A DNA stretch of 64,000 bases, taken from the NCBI RefSeq assembly GCF_054482595.1, contig NZ_CM137008.1. The stretch is one strand, 5' to 3'. Below, piece after piece: positions 3,570-53,018 of this stretch (position 1 is the stretch's first letter; the number at the start of each line of letters is the position of its first letter). The notes beneath the pieces were generated by a model that was given only the letters and a program-made list of their open reading frames with translations, searched no databases and was not told where the DNA came from. The translations under genes and the position numbers were made by a program.

Positions 3570-4082
3570 TTATTTCTTCAAATGTGGATGGAAATTACAC
3601 GGACGCGTACGGGCATCCAGCTGCGGCGCGATGATATTTTCCCATGCGGTACGGCACGCTTTGGTCGAACCCGGCATGGCGAAAATCAGCGTTTTGTTAG
3701 CGACGCCCGCTACCGCACGAGATTGCAACGTGGAAGTGCCAATCTCTTCAAACGACAACATACGGAACACTTCACCAAAACCTTCAACTTCACGGTCGAA
3801 CAACGGCAGCAATGCTTCGGGAGCCTGATCACCTTCCGTCAGGCCAGTCCCCCCCGTAATCAACACCACTTGTACATCGTCGCTGGCGATCCACGCAGAT
3901 ACCTGAGCGCGAATAGCGTAGCGGTTTTCTTTCACAATGGCTTTATCGACAACGTGATGGCCCGCTTCTTGCGCCGAATCGCGCAAATAGTGACCGGAGG
4001 TATCGTCTTCTTCACCGCGACGATTAGAAACCGTAAGAATAGCAATACGGGTCGGGATAAATTCAGTGCTTACCTGACTCAT
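3570..4082 (-). CDS. moaB: Molybdenum cofactor biosynthesis protein MoaB (170 aa)
   Basis: 170-aa ORF, MogA/MoaB-like translation, between moaA and moaC. Confidence 0.9.
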
Positions 4083-4103
4083 CTGATCTCTCCTTTTGAC
4101 GTT

Positions 4104-5093
4104 TTAGCCGCCAATGTACGATAAGTTTTGCGTAATACCGGTGTTGTTTTGATGCAGGAAATGGGTCTGTTTCTTCTCCCGCAGCGCCGCTGAAATACGC
4201 GCTTCCAGCACCTGTTGCTGGGTATCGTCTTCCAGCAGATCGCGCAGGTTAACGCCGCCTTCACCAAACAGGCAGAGATGGAGTTTACCAATGGAGGAAA
4301 CGCGCAGACGGTTGCAAGTGGCGCAGAAGTCTTTTTCATACGGCATGATAAGGCCAATCTCTCCGGCGTAATCCGGATGACAAAAGACTTGCGCGGGACC
4401 GTCGCTGCGTTGACGTAATTGGTGGATCCAGCCGCGACGCAGTAGCTCGTCACGCAGAACCTGACCAGAGATGTGATGCTTACGGAAGAGCTCGCTGCCC
4501 TCGCCCGTTTCCATCAGTTCGATGAAACGCAGCTGGATAGGGCGATGCTGGATCCAGTTCAGAAAGGTGTCGAGCTGGTGATGATTAACATCACGCATCA
4601 GCACGGTATTGACTTTGACCTTCTCAAAACCGGCCTCAAATGCAGCATCAATCCCTGCCATGACCTGGTTGAATTTATCCTGCCCGGTAATAGCGTGAAA
4701 CTGGCGGGCGTCCAGACTATCAACGCTGACGTTGATGCCAGTAAGTCCAGCATCGCGCCAGTTCGCCACATCGCGTTCCAGACGGTAACCATTGGTGGTG
4801 ACCGCTATCTGGCGAATAGCGTCGTTTTCTCGCACAGCGGCGATGATATCGGTAAAGTCGCGGCGTAAAGACGGCTCACCGCCTGTCAGGCGCACTTTTT
4901 CGGTGCCCAGACTGGCGAAGGCGCGCGTAACCCGGCGAATTTCATCGACGGTCAGAAAGCCTTTATTGGTGACGCCGCTCGGTTTGTAGCCATCCGGCAG
5001 GCAGTAGGTGCAACGAAAGTTACACACATCGGTAATCGACAGGCGCAAGTAGTAAAACTTACGCGCAAATGCATCAGTCAGTTGTGAAGCCAT
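4104..5093 (-). CDS. moaA: GTP 3',8-cyclase MoaA, radical SAM (329 aa)
   Basis: ORF trimmed to MASQLTDAF...; CNFRCTYC radical-SAM cysteine motif near N-terminus; 329 aa. Confidence 0.92.
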
Positions 5094-6588: not shown

Positions 6589-8610
6589 TCACGAAGCCGC
6601 GATAAACAATTCACGCAGCTGATGCAACTGGTCACGAATTTGTGCCGCTTCTTCGAACTCCAGATTCTGCGCGTGTTGCATCATTAACCCTTCCAGCTCA
6701 TGGATTTTCTGTTGCAACGCTTTAGGCGACATATCCATCGGCACATTATCCGGCTCAACAATCGGTCGCGATTTTCCTCTGCCCTTCGCTTTGGTTTTAG
6801 CAATGTTCTGCCCCAACGCCAGGATATCGACCACTTTCTTGTTCAAGCCTTGCGGCGTAATGCCGTGTTCCTCGTTGTACTTCTGCTGTTTCTCGCGGCG
6901 ACGTTCGGTTTCGCCAATCGCTTTCGCCATTGATGGGGTGATCTTATCGCCGTAGAGAATCGCTTTACCGTTAACGTTACGTGCCGCACGACCAATGGTC
7001 TGGATCAACGAACGTTCGGAACGCAGGAAGCCTTCTTTGTCAGCGTCGAGGATCGCCACCAGCGAAACCTCCGGCATATCCAGACCTTCGCGCAGTAAGT
7101 TGATCCCCACCAGCACGTCGAACTCACCCAGACGCAAGTCGCGGATAATCTCCATACGTTCGACGGTGTCGATATCCGAGTGAAGATAACGCACGCGCTC
7201 GCCATGTTCTTCGAGATATTCGGTGAGATCTTCCGCCATCCGCTTGGTGAGTGTGGTGACCAGTACGCGTTCGTTAATTGCCGCTCGCTGACGAATCTCC
7301 GAAAGAAGATCATCAACCTGTGTCGCCACTGGCCGCACTTCGATAATCGGATCAAGCAATCCGGTTGGACGCACCACCTGATCCACCACATCGCCGCCGG
7401 ATTTTTCCAGCTCATAATTACCTGGCGTCGCCGAAACATAGATGGTTTGCGGCGCTAATGCTTCGAACTCTTCAAATTTCAGCGGACGGTTATCCAGCGC
7501 TGATGGCAGGCGGAAGCCGTACTCCACCAGTGTCTCTTTACGCGCCCGGTCACCGCGATACATGCCGCCAATTTGTGGAATGGTGACGTGAGATTCATCG
7601 ACCACCAGCAGCCCATCGGCAGGCAGGTAATCAAACAGCGTCGGCGGTGGCTCACCCGGTCCACGACCAGAGAGGAAGCGCGAGTAGTTTTCAATCCCCG
7701 AACAGTAGCCCAGCTCGTTCATCATCTCCAGATCAAACTGGGTACGCTGGGTCAGCCGCTGCTCTTCCAGCAGTTTGTTGTTTTCCAACAGCACTTTGCG
7801 TCTGGCGGCCAGCTCTTCTTTGATCTCCTCCATCGCCTGTACGATGCGCTCGCGCGGTGTGACGTAGTGCGTTTTCGGGTAGATGGTAAAACGTGGAATA
7901 GTGGAAACAATCTGCCCGGTCAGCGGGTCAAATAACGACAATCGTTCCACTTCCTCGTCAAACAGTTCCACGCGAAGTGCAATGTCATCCGATTCTGCCG
8001 GGAATATATCAATCACCTCGCCACGAACGCGGAAAGTACCGCGCTGGAATGCCTGATCATTACGAGCGTATTGCAGCTCCGCCAGTCGGCGCAGAATCGC
8101 GCGCTGATCGATAATCATACCGACCGTGAGATGGAGCATCATCTTGAGATATAAATCAGGATCGCCCAGACCATAAATCGCGGAAACAGACGCGACCACA
8201 ACCACATCACGCCGCTCCAGCATCGCTTTGGTGGCGGACAAACGCATCTGTTCGATATGTTCGTTTACCGAGGCATCTTTCTCAATGAAGGTGTCGGAAC
8301 TCGGTACATAGGCTTCTGGCTGATAGTAGTCGTAGTAGGAGACGAAATATTCCACCGCGTTTTCCGGGAAGAACTCTTTCATTTCGCCATACAGCTGGGC
8401 CGCCAGCGTTTTGTTGGGCGCAAGTACCATGGTAGGGCGCTGAAGGTCAGCAATGACATTGGCAATGGTGAAGGTTTTCCCGGAACCAGTCACACCAAGT
8501 AACGTCTGGTGCGCCAGGCCATCTTCCAGCCCCTCTTCGAGACGTCGAATCGCCTCTGGCTGATCGCCAGAAGGTTTAAAAGCGGAATTCAGTTTGAACG
8601 GTTTACTCAT
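6589..8610 (-). CDS. uvrB: Excinuclease ABC subunit B UvrB (673 aa)
   Basis: 673-aa ORF; Walker A GVTGSGKT; helicase motifs; C-terminal UvrC-interaction region. Confidence 0.95.
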
Positions 8611-44717: not shown

Positions 44718-44807
44718 TACTTATAACCAAAGATAACTCAAGTTATAAAAATTAGCAATAACCTTTGTTATTTTACTTTGGATAACCGTAGTTATAGATT
44801 TGTGGGT
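44718..44807. promoter_or_regulatory. OR operators with divergent pR/pRM promoters
   Basis: Repeated imperfect palindromes with ATAAC...GTTAT half-sites (ataactcaagttat, aataacctttgttatt, ataaccgtagttat). Confidence 0.6.
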
Positions 44808-45515
44808 ATGAAAACATTCGCAGAAAGACTAAATGCAGCCATGAGCTCAGCAGGGGTATCACAATCACAGCTTGCTGACATGGTTGGAATATCTCAGCCA
44901 GCCATACAGAAGATGTCGTCCGGTAAAACAAACGGATCTCGCAAGATGGTTGAATTAGCCAATGCTTTAAAAGTGCGTCCTGAATGGCTTAGTTCTGGTA
45001 TTGGTGAAATGAGGGATGGTGCACATGAAGAACCATCCAATGTCCGTGAGTCATCTTTAAAAGCTGTGGTATGGGAAGACATTAAAAGAAACGATGACGA
45101 GTTTGTTGCGTTGCCTCTTCTTAACGTTTCGCTTTCAGCTGGAAGCGGTAGCTGCGAGCTAGAGGAATCATCGGAGTTCTCTTTGGTTTTCAGAAAGCAC
45201 TATCTGAAAAAGATGGGAGTATCTGAAAGATCAGCCAAGCTAGTTAGGGTTGTAGGGCAAAGCATGGAACCAACGCTTCACGATGGCGATGTTGTTGGTG
45301 TTAACACGCAAGATACCACAATCAGAGATGGTAAAACCTACGCTATTTGCCAGTCTGATTTGTTACGAGTAAAAACATTAATCGCCACCCCTACATCGGT
45401 GATAATCAGATCAATAAATCGCGAAGAGTACCCGGATGAAGTAATGGATAGAGATGAATTTCATAAAACCGTAAGGATTATTGGCAGAGTATTCTGGTCG
45501 TCTCATAGTTGGTAA
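44808..45515 (+). CDS. cI: CI-type prophage repressor, HTH + S24 LexA-like autopeptidase domain (235 aa)
   Basis: ORF 44778..45515 trimmed to MKTFAERLNAAMSSAGVSQSQLADMVGISQPAIQKM; C-terminal GQSMEPTL with Ser and later Lys of S24 peptidases. Confidence 0.85.
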   Translation: MKTFAERLNAAMSSAGVSQSQLADMVGISQPAIQKMSSGKTNGSRKMVELANALKVRPEWLSSGIGEMRDGAHEEPSNVRESSLKAVVWEDIKRNDDEFVALPLLNVSLSAGSGSCELEESSEFSLVFRKHYLKKMGVSERSAKLVRVVGQSMEPTLHDGDVVGVNTQDTTIRDGKTYAICQSDLLRVKTLIATPTSVIIRSINREEYPDEVMDRDEFHKTVRIIGRVFWSSHSW

Positions 45516-45757
45516 CCGATAATCAGAAGAAGACTTACGGAAGTGCGGAGGGATAATGGAATTTCTGATAGTTTTTGTTGTTGTTTTGGTCATCATTCTT
45601 TTTGTTTTGCTAAGCATTAGCAAAAAGCTATCTCAAATGATTGAACATAGCTCTAATCGCGCAAAATAGACTGGCCCCCTGAATCTCCAGACAACCAATA
45701 TCACTTATTTAAGTGATAGTCTTAATACTAGTTTTTAGACTAGTCATTGGAGAGCAG

Positions 45758-46123
45758 ATGATTGATGTCTTAGGACCGGAGAAACGCAGACGGCGTACTA
45801 CACAGGAAAAGATCGCTATTGTTCAGCAGAGTTTTGAACCGGGAATGACAGTCTCCCTTGTTGCCCGGCAACACGGTGTGGCAGCCAGCCAGTTATTTCT
45901 CTGGCGCAAGCAATACCAGGAGGGAAGTCTTACTGCTGTGGCCGCAGGAGAACAGGTCGTTCCTGCCTCTGAACTTGCTGCCGCCATGAAGCAGATTAAA
46001 GAACTCCAGCGCCTGCTCGGCAAAAAAACGATGGAAAATGAACTCCTTAAAGAAGCCGTTGAATACGGGCGTGCAAAAAAGTGGATAGCGCACGCGCCCT
46101 TATTGCCCGGGGATGGGGAGTAA
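45758..46123 (+). CDS. insC: IS2 transposase OrfA (InsC, 121 aa)
   Basis: [58 protein letters not shown]3-family HTH OrfA. Confidence 0.9.
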
Positions 46124-46986
46124 GCTTAGTCAGCCGTTGTCTCCGGGTGTCGCGTGCGCAGTTGCACGTCATTCTCAGACGAACCGATGACTGGAAAGAT
46201 GGTCGCCGCAGCCGTCACTCAGATGATACGGATGTGCTTCTCCGTATACACCATGTTATCGGAGAGCTGCCCACATATGGTTATCGTCGGGTATGGGCGC
46301 TGCTTCGCAGACAGGCCGAACTTGATGGTATGCCTGCGATCAATGCCAAACGTATTTACCGGATCATGCGCCAGAATGCGCTGTTGCTTGAGCGAAAACC
46401 CGCTGTACCGCCATCGAAACGGGCACATACCGGCAGAGTGGCTGTGAAAGAAAGTAATCAGCGATGGTGCTCTGACGGGTTCGAGTTCCGCTGTGATAAC
46501 GGAGAAAAACTGCGAGTCACGTTCGCGCTGGACTGCTGTGACCGTGAGGCACTGCACTGGGCGGTCACTACGGGCGGCTTCAACAGTGAAACAGTACAGG
46601 ACGTCATGCTGGGAGCGGTGGAACGCCGTTTCGGCAACGAGCTTCCGGCGTCTCCAGTAGAGTGGCTGACGGATAATGGTTCATGCTACCGGGCTAATGA
46701 AACACGGCAGTTTGCCCGGATGTTGGGGCTTGAACCGAAGAACACGGCGGTGCGGAGTCCGGAGAGTAACGGCATAGCAGAGAGCTTCGTGAAAACGATA
46801 AAGCGTGACTACATCAGTGTCATGCCCAAACCAGACGGGTTAACGGCAGCAAAGAACCTTGCAGAGGCATTCGAGCATTATAACGAATGGCATCCGCATA
46901 GTGCACTGGGTTATCGCTCGCCACGGGAATATCTACGGCAGCAAGCCAGTAATGGGTTAAGTGATAACAGGTGTCTGGAAATATAG
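46081..46986 (+). CDS. insD: IS2 transposase OrfB (InsD, 301 aa; expressed as InsCD by frameshift)
   Basis: DDE integrase-type translation overlapping orfA 3' end in a different frame. Confidence 0.9.
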
Positions 46987-47191
46987 GGGCAAATCCACAA
47001 AAGAAGAAGAGCATCTAATTGATATAAAAGAGATTCTATCTGATATAAAAATCACATTAGATGAAATAAAATACACAACAGATCTAATTGAACAGTATAA
47101 AATACCAACCCCAAACGAGAGAAAAGCAATAGATCAATATCGTATTGACTTAGAAATCGACGAAATGCTAAGCAAAAGAAAAGACTAAAAA

Positions 47192-47220
47192 CACCCGGCC
47201 TCAGCGCCGGGTTTTCTTTT
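47192..47220 (+). terminator. Rho-independent terminator after the IS2-split gene
   Basis: cccggcc tcag cgccggg followed by ttttctttt. Confidence 0.7.
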
Positions 47221-47349: not shown

Positions 47350-47426
47350 TGTTATCCATCACTTATAACTTATTTACCACAAAATATAAGTTAGGTTATT
47401 GACCACACCTATAACCTAAGTTATCT
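47350..47426. promoter_or_regulatory. OL operators / pL region
   Basis: Same half-site family as OR (ataagttaggttat, ataacctaagttat) upstream of nutL and N. Confidence 0.55.
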
Positions 47427-47472
47427 TTAAGCCATCAGCAGGACGCTGGTAGCCAAACGGAACAGATTGGCA

Positions 47473-47514
47473 GGCTCTTTAACATTGATGGGATTGTCCC
47501 GCCGAAATGCGGGA
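47473..47514 (+). promoter_or_regulatory. nutL (boxA + boxB)
   Basis: boxA GGCTCTTTAACA (47473..47484) and boxB TCCCGC-CGAAAT-GCGGGA (47497..47514), identical to nutR boxB. Confidence 0.7.
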
Positions 47515-47708: not shown

Positions 47709-48008
47709 ATGACAGTAGTCATTACATATCTGGCTGACGATAACGCCAGAAATCGCCGCAGAGCACGCAGACAGACTCAACGTGAACAGGCAATGCAAGA
47801 GCAGCGACTGGCGCGAAAAATTGCGCTAAAGCTCTCTGGTTGCGTCAGAGCAGATAAAGCAGCATCACTCGGAAGCCTTCGCTGCAAGAAGGCAGAAGAA
47901 GTCGAGCGTAAACAGAACCGTATTTACTACCGCAAGCCACGCAGTGAAATGGGTGTGACTTGTGTTGGTCGCCAGAAAATGAAATTAGGCAGCAAACCAC
48001 TTATTTGA
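47709..48008 (+). CDS. N: Antiterminator N (99 aa)
   Basis: Arg-rich N-terminus (NARNRRRARRQTQREQ) and C-terminus RIYYRKPRSEMGVTCVGRQKMKLGSKPLI paralleling lambda N. Confidence 0.8.
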   Translation: MTVVITYLADDNARNRRRARRQTQREQAMQEQRLARKIALKLSGCVRADKAASLGSLRCKKAEEVERKQNRIYYRKPRSEMGVTCVGRQKMKLGSKPLI

Positions 48009-48016
48009 GGTGAGAT

Positions 48017-48439
48017 GTGGAAGAACAAGCAAACAAGATTCTCGTAGAACTACTGCAAAAAGCCAGCAATGGAATAGACGCGGCTGTTTCATTTAGCCAG
48101 GCACAGATTCCTGATGTTGTTCATCAGTTGCTAATATGGAGTTTTGTCCATAGCGCACTTTTCCAAGTGACTGGGTTGTTGCTTTTAATTGCAGCAATGA
48201 AACTTCCTAGTTTTGCAAGAACGGCAAGAAATAATGGCGAGAGATGGACGTCTTTCGATGGATGTCCAAATGATGGATATTTTATATCTTCGTTTTATTA
48301 CGATATATGCACTGTATTTGCTCCTGTATTTGGCCCAATTATTGGCGTTTTAATTATTGCCTTCAATTTCGAATGGTTGAAGATTTGGCTTGCACCTAAG
48401 TTATTCCTAATTGAATATGCAGCGTCATTGGTTAAGTAA
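48017..48439 (+). CDS. Hypothetical membrane protein (140 aa, GTG start) directly after N
   Basis: GAGG 7 nt upstream of GTG 48017; two or three predicted TM helices. Confidence 0.5.
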   Translation: MEEQANKILVELLQKASNGIDAAVSFSQAQIPDVVHQLLIWSFVHSALFQVTGLLLLIAAMKLPSFARTARNNGERWTSFDGCPNDGYFISSFYYDICTVFAPVFGPIIGVLIIAFNFEWLKIWLAPKLFLIEYAASLVK

Positions 48440-48625
48440 TTTCAGGCCGAATATTCGGCCTTTATTTTTAGCATAAACAACAGAGGTGAATATGAACGCA
48501 GTTGAATTTACAAAATGGATGGCAGAGCAAGATATCACAGGAGCCGACGAAAAGGCTGTGTACTACATGGCTATGCTATGGATTCACAAAGCAAAAGAGG
48601 CTGCAAATGCTCTTGGAGGTGAGTG

Positions 48626-48826
48626 ATGTGCGAGTTTTATGAAGCAGATATCAAACGCCCAGAAATGGCAAGTGATGCGACATTACGTGATTACTTCGCA
48701 GCAAAGGCTATGCAAGCAATGATTAGCAATCCATCGATTATCGATAATGATTCTGATGGAGATGTTAATTATGCAGCAAGCGCTGCATATAAGTTTGCAG
48801 ACGCAATGCTCAAAGCTCGCGAATAA
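48626..48826 (+). CDS. Hypothetical protein (66 aa)
   Basis: ATG at 48626 preceded by GGAGG; acidic translation. Confidence 0.4.
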   Translation: MCEFYEADIKRPEMASDATLRDYFAAKAMQAMISNPSIIDNDSDGDVNYAASAAYKFADAMLKARE

Positions 48827-48921
48827 GCACTGTGTATTCATTCCAACGAGTGAATACACGGAGCAATGTCGCTCGTAACTAAACAGGAGCCGACTTGTTC
48901 TGATTGTTGGAAATCTTCTTT

Positions 48922-48949
48922 GCCCTCCAGTGTGAGGGCAATTTTTTTT
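48922..48949 (+). terminator. Rho-independent terminator within pL operon (antitermination target)
   Basis: gccctc cagtgt gagggc followed by aattttttttg. Confidence 0.65.
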
Positions 48950-48961
48950 GATGGAGGATAT

Positions 48962-49930
48962 ATGAGTGAAGTAACAGATTTAGTTGTTATTGAAAAAGCA
49001 AATGCAATGACTGTATTTCAGTCTGCCGACCAGATTGAAGAAATTCTCCAAAAGGTTGAACGTGAAGTTATGTCATTTGTGCCTGATATCACAACGGCAA
49101 AGGGCAGAAAGGAGATCGCTTCTCTGGCGTATAAAGTTGCGCAGACGAAAACATATCTCGATGGTCTTGGCAAAGACCTTGTTGCTGAACTGAAGGAAAT
49201 TCCAAAGCTAATTGATGCCAACCGCAAGACAGTGCGCGATCGCCTTGATGAACTGAAAGCCAAGGCGCGCCAGCCTCTTACTGATTATGAGGAAGAACAG
49301 GCGCGGATTAAAGCCGAAGAAGAAGCTAAGGCAGCAGCTGAAGCTCTCGCAAAGCAAATTGAGTCTGACCATGAAATAGCGATTTTGATGGATCGCGAAT
49401 TTGACCGCCAAAGAGAAGAGGCAAGACTCAAAGCGGAGCAGGAAAAGCGAGAGCATGAAGAACGATTAAAAAGAGAAGCTGAAGAGAAAGCCAGAGCTGA
49501 AGCCGAAGCAAAGGCAAAAGCCGAAATTGAAGCAGCAGCAAGACGAGAAGCAGAGGCTAAGGCCGCAGCGGAACGTGCAGAGCGTGAACGCATTGAAGCC
49601 GAGCAACGAGCACAGCGCGAAGCAAAAGAGGCAGCAGAACGAGCTGAAAGAGAAAAGCATGCGGCAATTGAAGCAGAACGCCGTAAAGCACAGGAGGAGG
49701 CAGAACGAATCCGGCGCGAGGCTGAAGCAAAAGAGCAAGCCAGAATAGCAGAAGAAAAAAGAATCAAGGACGAAGAAGAGCGTAGAGCAAAGGATAAAGC
49801 TCACCGGAAAGAAGTAAATAACAAAATACTTGCTGACCTTATCAAGGTTGGCGCATCAGAAGATGTTGCTAAAAATATCATAACAGCCATCGTAAAAGGC
49901 GAAGTATTCGCAACAAAAATAACCTACTAA
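48962..49930 (+). CDS. Hypothetical protein with long Ala/Glu/Lys/Arg coiled coil (TolA-like central region, 322 aa)
   Basis: GGAGG RBS then ATG 48962; about 150 residues of EAKAKAE/AERAERE-type repeats. Confidence 0.55.
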   Translation: MSEVTDLVVIEKANAMTVFQSADQIEEILQKVEREVMSFVPDITTAKGRKEIASLAYKVAQTKTYLDGLGKDLVAELKEIPKLIDANRKTVRDRLDELKAKARQPLTDYEEEQARIKAEEEAKAAAEALAKQIESDHEIAILMDREFDRQREEARLKAEQEKREHEERLKREAEEKARAEAEAKAKAEIEAAARREAEAKAAAERAERERIEAEQRAQREAKEAAERAEREKHAAIEAERRKAQEEAERIRREAEAKEQARIAEEKRIKDEEERRAKDKAHRKEVNNKILADLIKVGASEDVAKNIITAIVKGEVFATKITY

Positions 49931-49954: not shown

Positions 49955-50086
49955 ATGATTTACGCAATCGCGGGAGGCGCTCGCATGGGTGCCTTCCAAT
50001 TAAATGAATCTTTACTTGAACGAATCACCCGTAAATTACGTGACGGATGGAAAAGAGTTGAGGTCTTATTATGCGCAATGAAATAG
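49955..50086 (+). CDS. cIII: CIII-like protease inhibitor (43 aa)
   Basis: MIYAIAGGARMGAFQLNESLLERITRKLRDGWKR; core LLERITRKLRDGWKR matches lambda CIII as recalled; found by manual translation. Confidence 0.7.
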   Translation: MIYAIAGGARMGAFQLNESLLERITRKLRDGWKRVEVLLCAMK

Positions 50087-50223
50087 CCATTAATCACCAG
50101 ATGCTTCGTGCGGCACAAAACAAAGCAGTAATAGCCAGATTTATTGGTGATTCCAAAATGTGGCTTGAAGCAAATAAAGCGATGAAATCAGCTATCAACC
50201 TTCCGTGGTATCGCAGGAAATGA
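50071..50223 (+). CDS. kil: Kil-like host-killing protein (50 aa)
   Basis: MRNEIAINHQMLRAAQNKAVIARFIGDSKMWLEANKAMKSAI resembles lambda Kil; overlaps cIII end. Confidence 0.5.
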   Translation: MRNEIAINHQMLRAAQNKAVIARFIGDSKMWLEANKAMKSAINLPWYRRK

Positions 50224-50477: not shown

Positions 50478-51185
50478 ATGGATTTGAATAAATTCGATGA
50501 GCCATTCAGCCCTGAAGATATCGAATGGCGAATACAGCAAAGCGGTAAAACACGCGATGGCAAAGTGTGGGCTATGGTGCTGGCTTATGTCACGAACCGG
50601 GCAATCATGAAACGCCTGGACGATGTTTGCGGCAAAGCAGGATGGCGCAATGAATACCGCGATATTCCCAACAACGGCGGCGTTGAATGCGGCATATCAA
50701 TAAAGATTGATTCCGAATGGGTAACCAAATGGGATGCTGCTGAAAACACGCAGGTAGAAGCCGTCAAAGGTGGTCGTTCCGGTGCAATGAAGCGCGCTGC
50801 CGTTCAGTGGGGAATCGGTAGGTATCTGTATAACCTTGAGGAAGGTTTCGCACAAACATCTCTCGATAAAAAGCAGGGGTGGCACAGGGCAAAACTCAAG
50901 GATGGAACAGGATTTTACTGGCTCCCTCCATCGCTGCCGGGATGGGCAATCCCAGCATCAGATAACAAACCATCACCAGAAAATACCAACCAGAAATCTC
51001 CATCGGTTAACTGCGAACAAATCCTGAAAGACTTCAGCGATTATGCGTCAACAGAAACTGACAAGAAAAAACTCATCGAGCGTTATCAGCGTGACTGGCA
51101 ATTAATGGCTGGCAACGAGGAGGCGCAGGCTAAATGCGTTCAGGTAATGAACATCAGAGTTAACGAGCTAAAACAGGCGGCATAA
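50478..51185 (+). CDS. Rad52-type single-strand annealing protein (Sak-like, 235 aa)
   Basis: DIEWRIQQSGKTRDGKVWAMVLAYVTNRAIMKRLDDVCGKAGWRNEY...AVKGGRSGAMKRAAVQWGIGRYLY, Rad52/Rad22-like. Confidence 0.75.
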   Translation: MDLNKFDEPFSPEDIEWRIQQSGKTRDGKVWAMVLAYVTNRAIMKRLDDVCGKAGWRNEYRDIPNNGGVECGISIKIDSEWVTKWDAAENTQVEAVKGGRSGAMKRAAVQWGIGRYLYNLEEGFAQTSLDKKQGWHRAKLKDGTGFYWLPPSLPGWAIPASDNKPSPENTNQKSPSVNCEQILKDFSDYASTETDKKKLIERYQRDWQLMAGNEEAQAKCVQVMNIRVNELKQAA

Positions 51186-51659
51186 ATGGCAAGTAGAGGC
51201 GTAAATAAGGTGATCATTATTGGTCGCCTTGGGCATGATCCAGAAATCAGATATTCACCATCAGGAACGGCATTTGCAAACCTTACAGTTGCTACGTCAG
51301 AACAATGGCGTGATAAGAAAACTGGAGAGCAAAAGGAGCAGACGGAGTGGCACCGCGTGGTAATGAGCGGGAAACTGGCAGAAATTGCCAGCGAATATCT
51401 GCGAAAAGGCTCTGAGGTTTATCTTGAAGGAAAATTGCGGACAAGAAAATGGCAGGATCAAAGCGGACAGGATAGGTTCACTACCGAAGTCATCGTGGGC
51501 GTTGGTGGAACCATGCAAATGCTTGGTGGCAAGCAAGGAGGCAATGAACAGTCTTCACCTCAGCGAAATAACGGTCAGCAACAAAGACAGCAATCTCAGC
51601 AGCAGGGGAATCACAGCGAACCACCTATGAACTTCGACGATTCGGATATTCCGTTCTAG
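51186..51659 (+). CDS. ssb: Single-stranded DNA-binding protein (157 aa)
   Basis: OB-fold N-terminus [36 protein letters not shown], Gln/Gly-rich linker, acidic tail DDSDIPF. Confidence 0.9.
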
Positions 51660-51668
51660 GAGCTGAAT

Positions 51669-52148
51669 ATGAAAATCTGCTCAAGATGCCATCAACAGAA
51701 GGAAGAAAGGGACTTTCAAATCAGAAGAGCATCCAGAGATGGATTAACTGCCGCTTGCCGGGCTTGCCTGGCTGAATATGACAAAGAGCGCGCGGGATTG
51801 CCACATCGAGTATCAGCAAGGAGAAAATATCAATCATCGGAACGCGGAAGAGAACGGTGTAACGCAGCCAAAAAGCGGTTCATTCAGAGCAACCCATGGA
51901 AAAGAAAAGCCCACATCATCGTGGGTAATTTTTTGCGCGACGGTAAGCTAATCCGACCACCACAATGTGAGTGCTGCGGATCAGAATGTAAACCACAGTC
52001 GCACCACTGCGACTACAGCAAACCAACCGATGTGATGTGGCTCTGCAAGTCATGTCATGTCGAGTGGCACAAACATAACAAACCTATCTACCCAGACGAG
52101 GAACCAGTAACTCTCCCCTTCCCTCGTCACGCTATTCACGCAATTTAA
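51669..52148 (+). CDS. HNH-type endonuclease-like Cys-rich protein (159 aa)
   Basis: CSRCH...CRAC and CECCGSE...HHCDYSKP...CKSCHVEWH zinc-binding HNH-like arrangement. Confidence 0.55.
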   Translation: MKICSRCHQQKEERDFQIRRASRDGLTAACRACLAEYDKERAGLPHRVSARRKYQSSERGRERCNAAKKRFIQSNPWKRKAHIIVGNFLRDGKLIRPPQCECCGSECKPQSHHCDYSKPTDVMWLCKSCHVEWHKHNKPIYPDEEPVTLPFPRHAIHAI

Positions 52149-52156
52149 GGACTTAC

Positions 52157-52705
52157 ATGAATCACTTGATGGTTGACCTTGAAACAATGGGCAACGGGCC
52201 ATACGCGCCAGTTATTTCTATTGGGGCGGTATTCTTTGATCCGAATACCGGAGAAACAGGAGAAGAGTTCTCGGTAAATATCTCGCTTGAATCATCAATG
52301 CGATATCGAGCGCGTCCTGACGCTTCAACGATTTTATGGTGGCTGGAACAGAGTGAAGAAGCCAGAAAATCGCTAACCAGCAACACTCAGGAGCTTTCAA
52401 CGGCTCTTTCATGGTTATCTGAATTCATCATAAAGAACGCTAACCACAAATTCGTTCAGGTTTGGGGGAATGGAGCATCATTTGACTGCGTTATTCTCCG
52501 AAACAGTTATTCGCTGACAGGGCAGCCAGTTCCGTGGCAGTGGTGGAATGACCGCGACGTAAGAACAATCGTCGAACTTGGGAAGGTAATAGGATTCGAC
52601 CCTAAGCGAGATATGCCATTCAAAGGAACTCGCCACAACGCTCTTGATGATGCCATTCACCAAGCCAAATACGTTTCAGCGATCTGGAAAAAGTTAGCTA
52701 AATAA
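52157..52705 (+). CDS. DnaQ-like 3'-5' exonuclease (DEDDh family, 182 aa)
   Basis: Exo I motif MVDLETMG, Exo III motif HNALDDAIHQAKY. Confidence 0.7.
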   Translation: MNHLMVDLETMGNGPYAPVISIGAVFFDPNTGETGEEFSVNISLESSMRYRARPDASTILWWLEQSEEARKSLTSNTQELSTALSWLSEFIIKNANHKFVQVWGNGASFDCVILRNSYSLTGQPVPWQWWNDRDVRTIVELGKVIGFDPKRDMPFKGTRHNALDDAIHQAKYVSAIWKKLAK

Positions 52706-52721
52706 TCAACAGGAGAAAACC

Positions 52722-53018
52722 ATGCCAGCGCCTCTGTATGGTGCGGATGACCCGCGCCGCTGTTCCGGCAATTCCGTATCGGAGGTGCTGGATAAATTCA
52801 GAAAAAACTACGATCGGATAATGTCGCTACCTCAGGAAACGAAAGAGGAAAAGGAATTTCGCCATTGTATATGGCTTGCAGAGAAAGAAGAACGCGAGCG
52901 AATTTACCAGACATCAATCCGACCATTCCGCAAAGCCACATATACCCACTTCCCTGAATATATCGACCCGCGCCTGCGTAATTACCGCTCACGCTATGGC
53001 GCTATCAGTAATGACTGA
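52722..53018 (+). CDS. Hypothetical protein (98 aa)
   Basis: ORF with no recognisable motif. Confidence 0.4.

Follow-up and report, generated by a model that had tools for sequence, protein, structure and literature searches.

An Agt/Mog-family protein behind a lambda tL2a-type terminator, and a small predicted membrane protein, in the early-left operon of a P22-like prophage

Two genes are considered here, both read on the plus strand between positions 48,017 and 49,930 of a 64,000-nucleotide stretch of contig NZ_CM137008.1 (RefSeq assembly GCF_054482595.1), called the window below. They encode proteins of 140 and 322 amino acids (aa). An earlier note on this DNA, made from the letters alone, had presented them as an accessory block of a pL operon, composed of a membrane protein directly after the antiterminator gene N and a TolA-like coiled-coil protein behind an internal terminator. 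This DNA is best explained as a mosaic segment from the N-controlled early-left operon of a P22-like/lambdoid prophage, in which the two accessory genes are unrelated. The two genes are new members of catalogued families, one of which has a named member, the Agt protein of phage phi80. The plus strand here corresponds to the direction of the leftward early operon of lambda. The features of the segment are given below; occurrence was counted over the 79 E. coli-type related loci that carry the 322-aa gene.

48017–48439, plus strand: 140-aa open reading frame (ORF) started by GTG; phrog_3054, E-value 2.5e-52, full length (residues 1–140)
48444–48470, plus strand: terminator-like hairpin (hairpin at 48444–48461), AGGCCGAATATTCGGCCT then TTATTTTT; free energy (dG) -11.9, z-score -3.9
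48492–48626, plus strand: 44-aa ORF; PHROG 24660, E-value 2.7e-34, full length; in 4/79 related loci
48626–48826, plus strand: 66-aa ORF; PHROG 2201-like, E-value 1.2e-18; in 6/79 related loci
48829–48862, plus strand: strong hairpin with no T-tract; dG -21.9 kcal/mol, z-score -6.8; identical in lambda, Sf6 and CUS-3
48920–48949, plus strand: rho-independent terminator, 8-bp GC-rich stem (5 GC pairs), 6-nt loop, T8; homologue of lambda tL2a
48953–48957, plus strand: ribosome-binding site of the 322-aa gene, GGAGG, 4 nt ahead of the ATG at 48962
48962–49930, plus strand: 322-aa ORF of the Agt/Mog family; phrog_1376, E-value 3.9e-110 over residues 1–322

The larger gene was recovered as described, with its GGAGG, its ATG at 48962 and its end at 49930. 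A mechanical ORF of 354 aa starting at 48866 was rejected. The start at 48962 is considered real because homologues begin at this position, while the extension from 48866 runs through the terminator. The sequence MSE[VTI]TDL opens 17 of 18 aligned homologues, phi80 Agt among them, the exception being the over-called ORF P0020. By BLASTP the protein was 51% identical, end to end, to phi80 gp39, Agt/Mog (YP_007947961; 322 versus 322 aa, E-value 2e-64), and it corresponds to Sf6 gp33 (PHROG 1376). In the phi80 record gp39 is named agt, "anti-toxin for Gam; Mog (modifier of Gam)", and the adjacent gamL is described as "toxic without Mog". The same link between Agt and Gam is present in the records of HF4s and Erwinia Eho49. 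The two proteins had been described as being of unknown function, a statement which does not hold for the 322-aa protein, a full-length homologue of a protein annotated "anti-toxin for Gam". Homology to a characterised phage protein, which the earlier note had named as an outcome that would speak against its description, was found in part, in this match to phi80 Agt. The likeness to the phi80 protein covers the length, the N-terminal domain, the spacer and the C-terminal module, as well as the location in an early-left operon, promoter-proximal to the recombination genes. The two loci differ in what follows: the next gene is gamL in phi80, whereas the window has Abc2 and Erf in place of Gam or GamL, with cIII and kil intervening.

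Annotation pipelines name the 322-aa protein "cell envelope biogenesis protein TolA", and the earlier note had likewise called it TolA-like. This likeness proved to be one of composition only. Like domain II of E. coli TolA, the protein contains a long helical stretch rich in Ala, Glu, Lys and Arg; it differs from TolA by having neither the membrane anchor nor the TolA C-terminal domain in Pfam, and by being encoded by a phage early gene rather than in the tol-pal operon. TIGR02794 scored 9.1 bits, against a cut-off of 59.45. The 19-residue hydropathy maximum was 1.03, no segment reaching 1.6, and no Pfam match at an E-value of 10 or less was found in the protein or in 113 relatives, so that the identity with TolA was rejected and the Agt/Mog family is absent from Pfam over these 114 proteins. 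A sequence-profile search of the PDB with the 322-aa protein gave compositional matches only (ensconsin, ATP synthase b). Foldseek with its model gave a best E-value of 2.2 in the PDB, and in AFDB50 only one member of the family. Weak cross-matches of the Agt family within PHROG, to phrog_10477 (carrying the unverified label "exonuclease", E-value 2.6e-4) and to phrog_16469, were not used. A full-text literature search returned nothing on Agt, Mog, Sf6 gp33 or gp34, or phage "TolA". A 2025 survey of lambdoid recombination modules treats GamL; Agt, Mog and TolA are absent from those of its sections and terms that were checked (PMC12315714).

The architecture of the Agt proteins was constant in phages of gamma- and alpha-proteobacteria and consists of an N-terminal domain, a charged helical spacer and a C-terminal module. 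The N-terminal domain, conserved and helical, spans approximately 110–160 residues (here about 1–160); it shows the motif P-D-x-[ST]-T-x-K-G-R, and its residues R49, G70 and E110 are invariant. The C-terminal module, also conserved and of approximately 42 residues, shows the motif H-[RK]-[RK]-x-[IV]-N and ends with I-x-[YF] (I-x-Y here). The centre of the protein, residues 111–285, is made of 28% E, 25% A, 16% R and 11% K. Its low complexity is as the earlier note had it; the coiled coil is not, as no heptad periodicity was found and bulky hydrophobic residues amount to 6% of segment 161–280 (7 of 120 residues). A canonical heptad coiled coil was rejected for this segment, which has no hydrophobic a/d seam and a period-3.5 power of 0.04. 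The same 120 residues are 62% charged and 28% Ala, with many pairs of opposite charge at i/i+3 and i/i+4. The spacer thus seems to resemble a single alpha-helix of the ER/K type, as in myosins, rather than a heptad coiled coil: a charge content near 60%, dense i/i+4 pairs, almost no hydrophobic seam and tolerance to changes in length are shared. The likeness is by composition only, and AlphaFold folds the Agt spacer back as a hairpin, with low global confidence. The model (114-sequence alignment; predicted local distance difference test, pLDDT, 84.6) comprises two short helices, a helix of approximately 156 residues (46–201), another of approximately 91 residues (205–295) and a small C-terminal helix. 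The fold-back is unreliable because the predicted template modelling score (pTM) is low and the turn is of low confidence.

Natural Agt variants measure 245–333 aa and differ by single in-frame insertions or deletions within the central helical region, at residues ~122–240. Exact tandem DNA repeats were rejected as the source of this variation in length, only degenerate dispersed repeats being present. In the CUS-3 record (3765–4734) the Agt-family gene appears as two overlapping hypothetical coding sequences (351 and 645 nt), a split that points to a frameshift or a sequencing error in the low-complexity spacer.

The Agt/Mog family is large. An exhaustive search with residues 1–159 gave 3,589 cluster representatives (50% identity) at an E-value of 1e-10 or less. 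Members are known from phages of Escherichia, Enterobacter, Klebsiella, Yersinia, Erwinia, Pseudomonas, Vibrio, Acinetobacter and Sinorhizobium. The gene orders observed around the Agt gene in named phages were the following:

phi80: agt, gamL, recT, exo, with kil just upstream of agt
Mulock: kil, agt, GamL, bet, exo
D3, JBD44 and phiLM21: agt, erf, exo
TCUAN1: agt, bet, exo
Yersinia 29.18: agt, cIII, two small ORFs, recE, recT
Eho49: agt, about 1 kb, erf
Seahorse: Sak4, SSB, agt

In 76 of 80 D3-type loci recovered from viral contigs, a match to the panel of annealing proteins (Erf-type) was located downstream of the Agt gene, the gap having a median of 11 nt and ranging from -63 to 2938. Of the remaining four, two adjoined a Sak4-type ATPase gene and a third had a Sak4-like gene; in the last, a 313-aa gene without assignment came first, then exonuclease and SSB genes. 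Usable annotated flanks were available for three of seven metagenomic loci, the others being three contigs of less than 1.4 kb and a 2.7-kb contig with unannotated neighbours. The first of the three had an annealing protein 4 nt upstream of the Agt gene; the second was directly preceded by an SSB-like gene, Erf and YqaJ being more distant on the same side; the third had a YqaJ-type exonuclease and an unassigned gene upstream. In every context examined the Agt gene was within about 0.6 kb of a recombination gene (Erf, RecT/Bet, Sak4-like, SSB or exonuclease), the distance being about 1 kb in one case. Nearness to a recombination module is the only stable feature across hosts and phage types, the families of the annealing and anti-RecBCD proteins being changed from one to the next. 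This argues for, without proving, a role tied to the module and a partner shared by all such modules (host nuclease, SSB or DNA). Since the annealing proteins belong to several families, one specific phage recombinase is unlikely to be the partner of Agt.

The situation in the E. coli-type loci leaves room for another explanation, in which Agt would be a passenger of the cIII-kil block, a modulator of lysis-lysogeny, FtsH or cell division devoid of a recombination role, and its nearness to a recombinase a relic of operon order. There, cIII follows the Agt gene in 79/79 loci, Kil was present in 68/79, Abc2 in 70/79 and GamL in 0/79, so that the constant neighbour is cIII, and usually kil, not the recombinase; kil is also just upstream in phi80 and Mulock. 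In the window the order after the Agt gene is cIII, kil, two small ORFs, Erf, SSB and, further on, Abc2, that is, an early operon next to a recombination module. We regard the passenger explanation as quite unlikely. In phages of Pseudomonas, Sinorhizobium, Acinetobacter and Vibrio with no annotated cIII or kil, the Agt gene still abuts Erf, Bet or Sak4/SSB, with gaps commonly of about 10 nt, and the phi80 annotation links Agt to Gam.

RecBCD inhibitors, as well as SSB or annealing proteins of phages, can set off defence systems. Agt might be a counter-defence protein or a decoy, shielding the recombination and anti-RecBCD proteins (or the inhibition of RecBCD) from host systems that sense them, such as abortive-infection systems of the guard type, and the toxicity of Gam without Mog would then be the activation of a host system. 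In its favour, the early gene directly adjoins those whose products would be sensed, the length of the spacer changes rapidly, and the family is very widespread in temperate phages. The N-terminal domain is, however, strongly conserved across distant hosts, which is unusual for proteins engaged in an arms race, and no PADLOC model or known anti-defence family was matched. We give this explanation a low probability.

A comparison was also made with Siphovirus Gp157 (PF05565). In Streptococcus phage Sfi21 (5258–6429), the Gp157 gene (PHROG label "Mu Gam-like end protection") is directly upstream of a Sak4-type annealing-protein gene, the same slot as that of Agt, and this slot may be a general place for accessory genes that handle DNA ends. 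Kinship between the two proteins was not detected (hhalign probability 0.14; no PHROG cross-match). The N-terminal domain was therefore rejected as a Gram-negative version of Gp157 or of Mu Gam; the Gp157 alignment is shallow (10 sequences, 85–93% identical), and on that account a very remote link is not excluded. In one metagenomic phage contig, a gene at 6771–7226 with a precomputed Pfam match to Tad2-like (PF11195) was located about 0.6 kb downstream of an Agt-family gene, showing that anti-defence genes can occupy the same early region.

The smaller gene was confirmed at 48017–48439, with GAGG 6 nt upstream of the GTG. This start is credible because the homologues begin at the same alignment column, with M-[EN]-EQANKIL, and twelve close relatives have ATG at exactly this position. 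The prediction of a membrane protein also stood: the Kyte-Doolittle profile (19-residue window) is of the membrane type, with two hydrophobic segments at about residues 38–61 (peak 1.9) and 95–119 (peak 2.4), both retained in all 32 aligned relatives. The protein belongs to the family of Sf6 gp34 and CUS-3 ECRS218_0047 (PHROG 3054) and is 95% identical to the CUS-3 protein. Residues 1–46 and 117–140 are highly conserved in the family, Vibrio phages and virulent phages included, and the transmembrane (TM) hairpin and its loop are hypervariable in sequence and in length. Summed over the alignment, the N-terminal tail is acidic (76 K/R versus 154 D/E) and the 12 residues after the first TM segment are basic (108 K/R versus 33 D/E). 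AlphaFold predicted a helix-loop-helix-helix arrangement (pLDDT 81). The best Foldseek match in the PDB, to helices of pore-forming toxins, had an E-value of 1.9 and is not meaningful; Pfam, NCBIfam and PADLOC gave no match. An isolated Claudin_2 match (E-value 5.4e-4), in a single member of the 32 relatives, was treated as spurious.

The 140-aa gene accompanies the 322-aa gene in only 10 of the 79 related loci, which rules out the two as one system or functional pair. It moves among phages in varied company. In Salmonella phage 118970_sal4 the homologue is located between sieB and cIII, with no Agt gene, and in PhiR46_1 between the lysis and terminase genes. Homologues were also found in early or DNA-metabolism regions of the virulent phage phi92, of the N4-like phage SP-058, of Vibrio phages and of Citrobacter phage K1M: ahead of genes for an AAA ATPase and an endonuclease in phi92, between genes of the DUF2800 nuclease family in the Vibrio phages, and after a beta-clamp-like gene in K1M. 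By this distribution the gene is a mobile accessory gene, moron-like, and present in virulent phages too. Because it moves like a moron in related phages, our first-ranked, tentative suggestion is that the protein acts on the host envelope, in the exclusion of other phages or in early host takeover. The position of the virulent-phage homologues in phi92, the Vibrio phages and K1M points as well to a second role, that of a membrane anchor for the early DNA metabolism of the phage (replication or recombination complexes), which short conserved termini joined to a varying TM hairpin would suit. This second reading is unlikely, as the gene is dispensable in most relatives (those lacking it among the 79 loci), a homologue is also found between lysis and terminase genes, and, judging from the charge bias, the conserved termini may be on the periplasmic side.

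The place of the two genes after N had been compared with that of ral and sieB in lambda and P22. The position agrees; relatedness of either protein to Ral or SieB was not found (E-values of 2.0 for lambda Ral and 0.74 for SieB against the window). In CUS-3 and Sf6 the 140-aa gene stands beside ral and does not replace it. The slot could nevertheless be taken to mean that both genes are directed at the envelope, a membrane exclusion protein being combined with a TolA-like, envelope-spanning protein that would hit Tol-Pal or superinfecting phages. In favour of this, the zone after N that houses both genes is variable and accessory, the 140-aa protein has a predicted membrane location and moron-like behaviour, and the 322-aa protein, named TolA by pipelines, has a spacer composed like TolA domain II. 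Such a joint role is very unlikely given that neither a TM or signal-like segment (maximum 1.03) nor a TolA C-terminal domain is present in the 322-aa protein, which scores far under the TolA cut-off, is homologous to phi80 Agt and keeps synteny with recombination genes in all contexts examined; in addition the genes rarely co-occur, and neither product resembles Ral or SieB.

The terminator ahead of the Agt-family gene, announced at 48922–48949, was found within 2 nt of this location, with its stem at 48920–48941 and T8 at 48942–48949. Terminator-like sites are not enriched in the region as a whole (10, versus 8.0 +/- 2.4 in shuffles). This particular hairpin is not a chance occurrence because the segment 48827–48955 is almost base-for-base the ral-ea10 intergenic region of lambda, with few differing positions, because the Sf6 record labels the homologous hairpin tL2A, and because a hairpin of the tL2a type is located 18–21 nt before the ATG of the 322-aa type in 63/77 related loci. 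The hairpin, its T-run and its place before the gene preceding cIII are the same as in the ral-ea10 "boundary" of lambda; the gene behind it differs, being ea10 in lambda and the Agt-family gene in the window. The strong hairpin at 48829–48862, which the earlier note did not list, is located just upstream of the tL2a homologue, within the lambda-identical intergenic boundary sequence. It may be a further member of the tL2 cluster of lambda, an RNA-processing site, or a part of the recombination boundary sequence (bsq4 in Sf6).

Another terminator-like hairpin, absent from the list of the earlier note, lies at 48444–48461 directly 3' of the 140-aa gene and is followed by a T-rich tail. The 3' half of this element (48444–48470) is a junction sequence common with lambda downstream of ral (GGCCTTTATTTTT.GCATAAA.AACAGA). 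Between the two hairpins the 44-aa and 66-aa ORFs, also missed previously, are translationally coupled by a TGATG stop/start overlap. The pair is flanked by lambda-like junction sequences, and the two ORFs look like an inserted mini-module.

The claim that the block belongs to a pL operon was supported by its surroundings: upstream a cI-like repressor gene, a pL-like promoter, a nutL-like site with boxA and boxB, and N; downstream cIII, kil, Erf, SSB and Abc2. These features are as follows:

44778–45515: cI-like repressor gene
about 45668–46996: IS2 copy, between the cI-like gene and pL
47193–47212: bidirectional terminator
47399–47427, plus strand: pL-like sigma-70 promoter match (TTGACC, 17 nt, TATCTT; 9/12 matches)
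47474–47513, plus strand: nutL-like site, boxA GCTCTTTAA at 47474–47482 and boxB-like hairpin CCCGC-CGAAAT-GCGGG at 47498–47513
47709–48008, plus strand: N-type antiterminator gene, 99 aa (phrog_271, E-value 1.6e-36; lambda N by tblastn, E-value 1.7e-7)
49955–50086, plus strand: cIII (phrog_550 / phrog_2055 matches for cIII and kil)
50071–50223, plus strand: kil (the same phrog_550 / phrog_2055 matches)
between 50223 and 50478: two small ORFs
50478–51185, plus strand: Erf (PHROG search of the recombination module)
51186–51659, plus strand: SSB (assigned by position, sequence and the matching Sf6 gene annotation)
51669–52148, plus strand: HNH-type endonuclease, 159 aa (phrog_2340)
52157–52705, plus strand: DnaQ-like 3'-5' exonuclease, 182 aa (phrog_255)
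52722–53018, plus strand: Abc2 anti-RecBCD protein (phrog_656, E-value 7.8e-57)

The recombination module (50478–53018) was assigned by phrog_1097, phrog_2340, phrog_255 and phrog_656. The pL-like promoter is located in an operator-like region downstream of the IS2 insertion, and its function is suggested by this setting and by the position of the cI-like gene and N. The boxA and boxB at 47474–47513 we take to resemble the nut sites of lambda and P22. On the plus strand the promoter scan found no sigma-70-like site between pL and 50226. As the tL2a homologue stands ahead of the 322-aa gene and no such site intervenes, the natural reading would be that expression of this gene is N-dependent (delayed-early). 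By the lambda paradigm, the 140-aa gene should instead be immediate-early, co-expressed with N and not dependent on it, since it is upstream of the first terminator-like hairpin and 8 nt from N.

The closest sequenced phages are the P22-like Lederbergviruses CUS-3 and Sf6, with approximately 98% DNA identity over the common parts. They share with the window the order gp34, boundary sequence, tL2A, gp33 (ECRS218_0047 and ECRS218_0048/49 in CUS-3), cIII, kil and Erf; they differ from it by the presence of ral between N and gp34 and by the lack of the 44-aa and 66-aa ORFs. Neither of the two phage records gives a function for these proteins. As a locus the block is ordinary, since it matches in parts 2,312 of 5,426 complete E. 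coli genomes (43%). The exact set of N, gp34, 44-aa ORF, 66-aa ORF and gp33 is uncommon: the best coverage was 87%, and 80% or more was reached in 43 genomes.

We propose that this mosaic piece of operon carries, in its Agt-family gene, an accessory of the phage recombination and anti-nuclease functions, an account to which we assign a probability of about 0.4 as a whole; its details, and above all the tethering or moderating mechanism, are less probable. If the lambda model applies, pL transcripts would, without N, stop at the hairpins ending near 48470 and 48949, and N acting at the nutL-like site would allow read-through into the Agt-family gene, cIII, kil and the recombination genes. The 322-aa protein would be made only upon this read-through, as its gene is the first behind the lambda tL2a-type terminator. 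The 140-aa product would be a small inner-membrane protein, its gene transcribed with N ahead of the first terminator. The 322-aa protein would be a soluble, elongated, all-helical component, in which a stiff charged helix of variable length would keep the conserved N-terminal head and the small C-terminal head apart. The two heads might bind or tether partners common to all such modules: host nucleases of the RecBCD type, SSB or DNA ends. The protein would in this way soften the toxicity to the host that the anti-RecBCD function brings with it, in line with what the phi80 record states for Agt and GamL; the anti-RecBCD partner here would be Abc2, not Gam.

Several observations weigh against this account. 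The sole functional statement on the Agt family is the note in the phi80 GenBank record, the full-text search having found no other paper, and searches of Pfam, NCBIfam, PADLOC, PDB profiles and Foldseek showed no DNA-binding, enzymatic or known interaction domain in the 322-aa protein, the global arrangement of its AlphaFold model being uncertain (pTM 0.39). Gam or GamL was not found in the 64-kb window (best E-values 0.7–1.7), Abc2 being present instead, and the documented anti-Gam activity is therefore without an obvious substrate here. Gene order in phage operons can persist through co-inheritance alone; cIII and kil separate the Agt gene from the recombinase in the E. coli-type phages; and lambda carries the unrelated ea10 in the Agt slot, so that the Agt protein is not universal in recombination modules. 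For the 140-aa protein, even the topology is ambiguous, the positive-inside rule favouring, though not decisively, a cytoplasmic loop with both conserved termini outside.

The result is mainly corrective. What pipelines label "TolA" in enterobacterial genomes by the thousand is an early phage protein belonging to the family of phi80 Agt, and the terminator ahead of it is the classical tL2a element of lambda. The residual interest is that the family is very large, misnamed and consistently found beside annealing proteins of different families, although it lacks a domain entry and a structure and is almost absent from the literature. A role of Agt in recombination modules, which we infer from gene order and one database note, would if true bear on the handling of RecBCD by phages and on recombineering toolkits. 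A broader, rather doubtful possibility would make the Agt/Mog family an unrecognised, widespread component of phage recombination modules, with two heads and a tunable single-helix spacer coupling DNA ends or host nuclease/SSB complexes to annealing machinery of any family and, as a separate matter, would make the Sf6 gp34 family an early membrane effector conserved broadly in temperate and virulent phages.

Two further observations concern the flanks of the block. Within the recombination module, the HNH-type endonuclease and the DnaQ-like exonuclease between SSB and Abc2 were present in only 12–14 of the 79 related loci. Upstream, the IS2 copy (45668–46996) is complete, with TnpA at 45758–46123 and TnpB at 46081–46986 (276 and 710 bits in NCBIfam, both above the cut-off), and is flanked by a 5-bp direct repeat, CAAAA, at 45663–45667 and 46997–47001; pL, nutL and N downstream look intact. 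The insertion interrupts a gene of 98 aa (45556–45667 and 47002–47188), and the rejoined protein matches PHROG 18389 end to end (E-value 5e-62). This protein combines a TM helix at its N-terminus with a tail that is helical and charged, and its gene is located just downstream of cI, before the bidirectional terminator at 47193–47212. By its position, which is like that of lambda rexAB, it is a candidate for an exclusion gene expressed in the lysogen and inactivated here.

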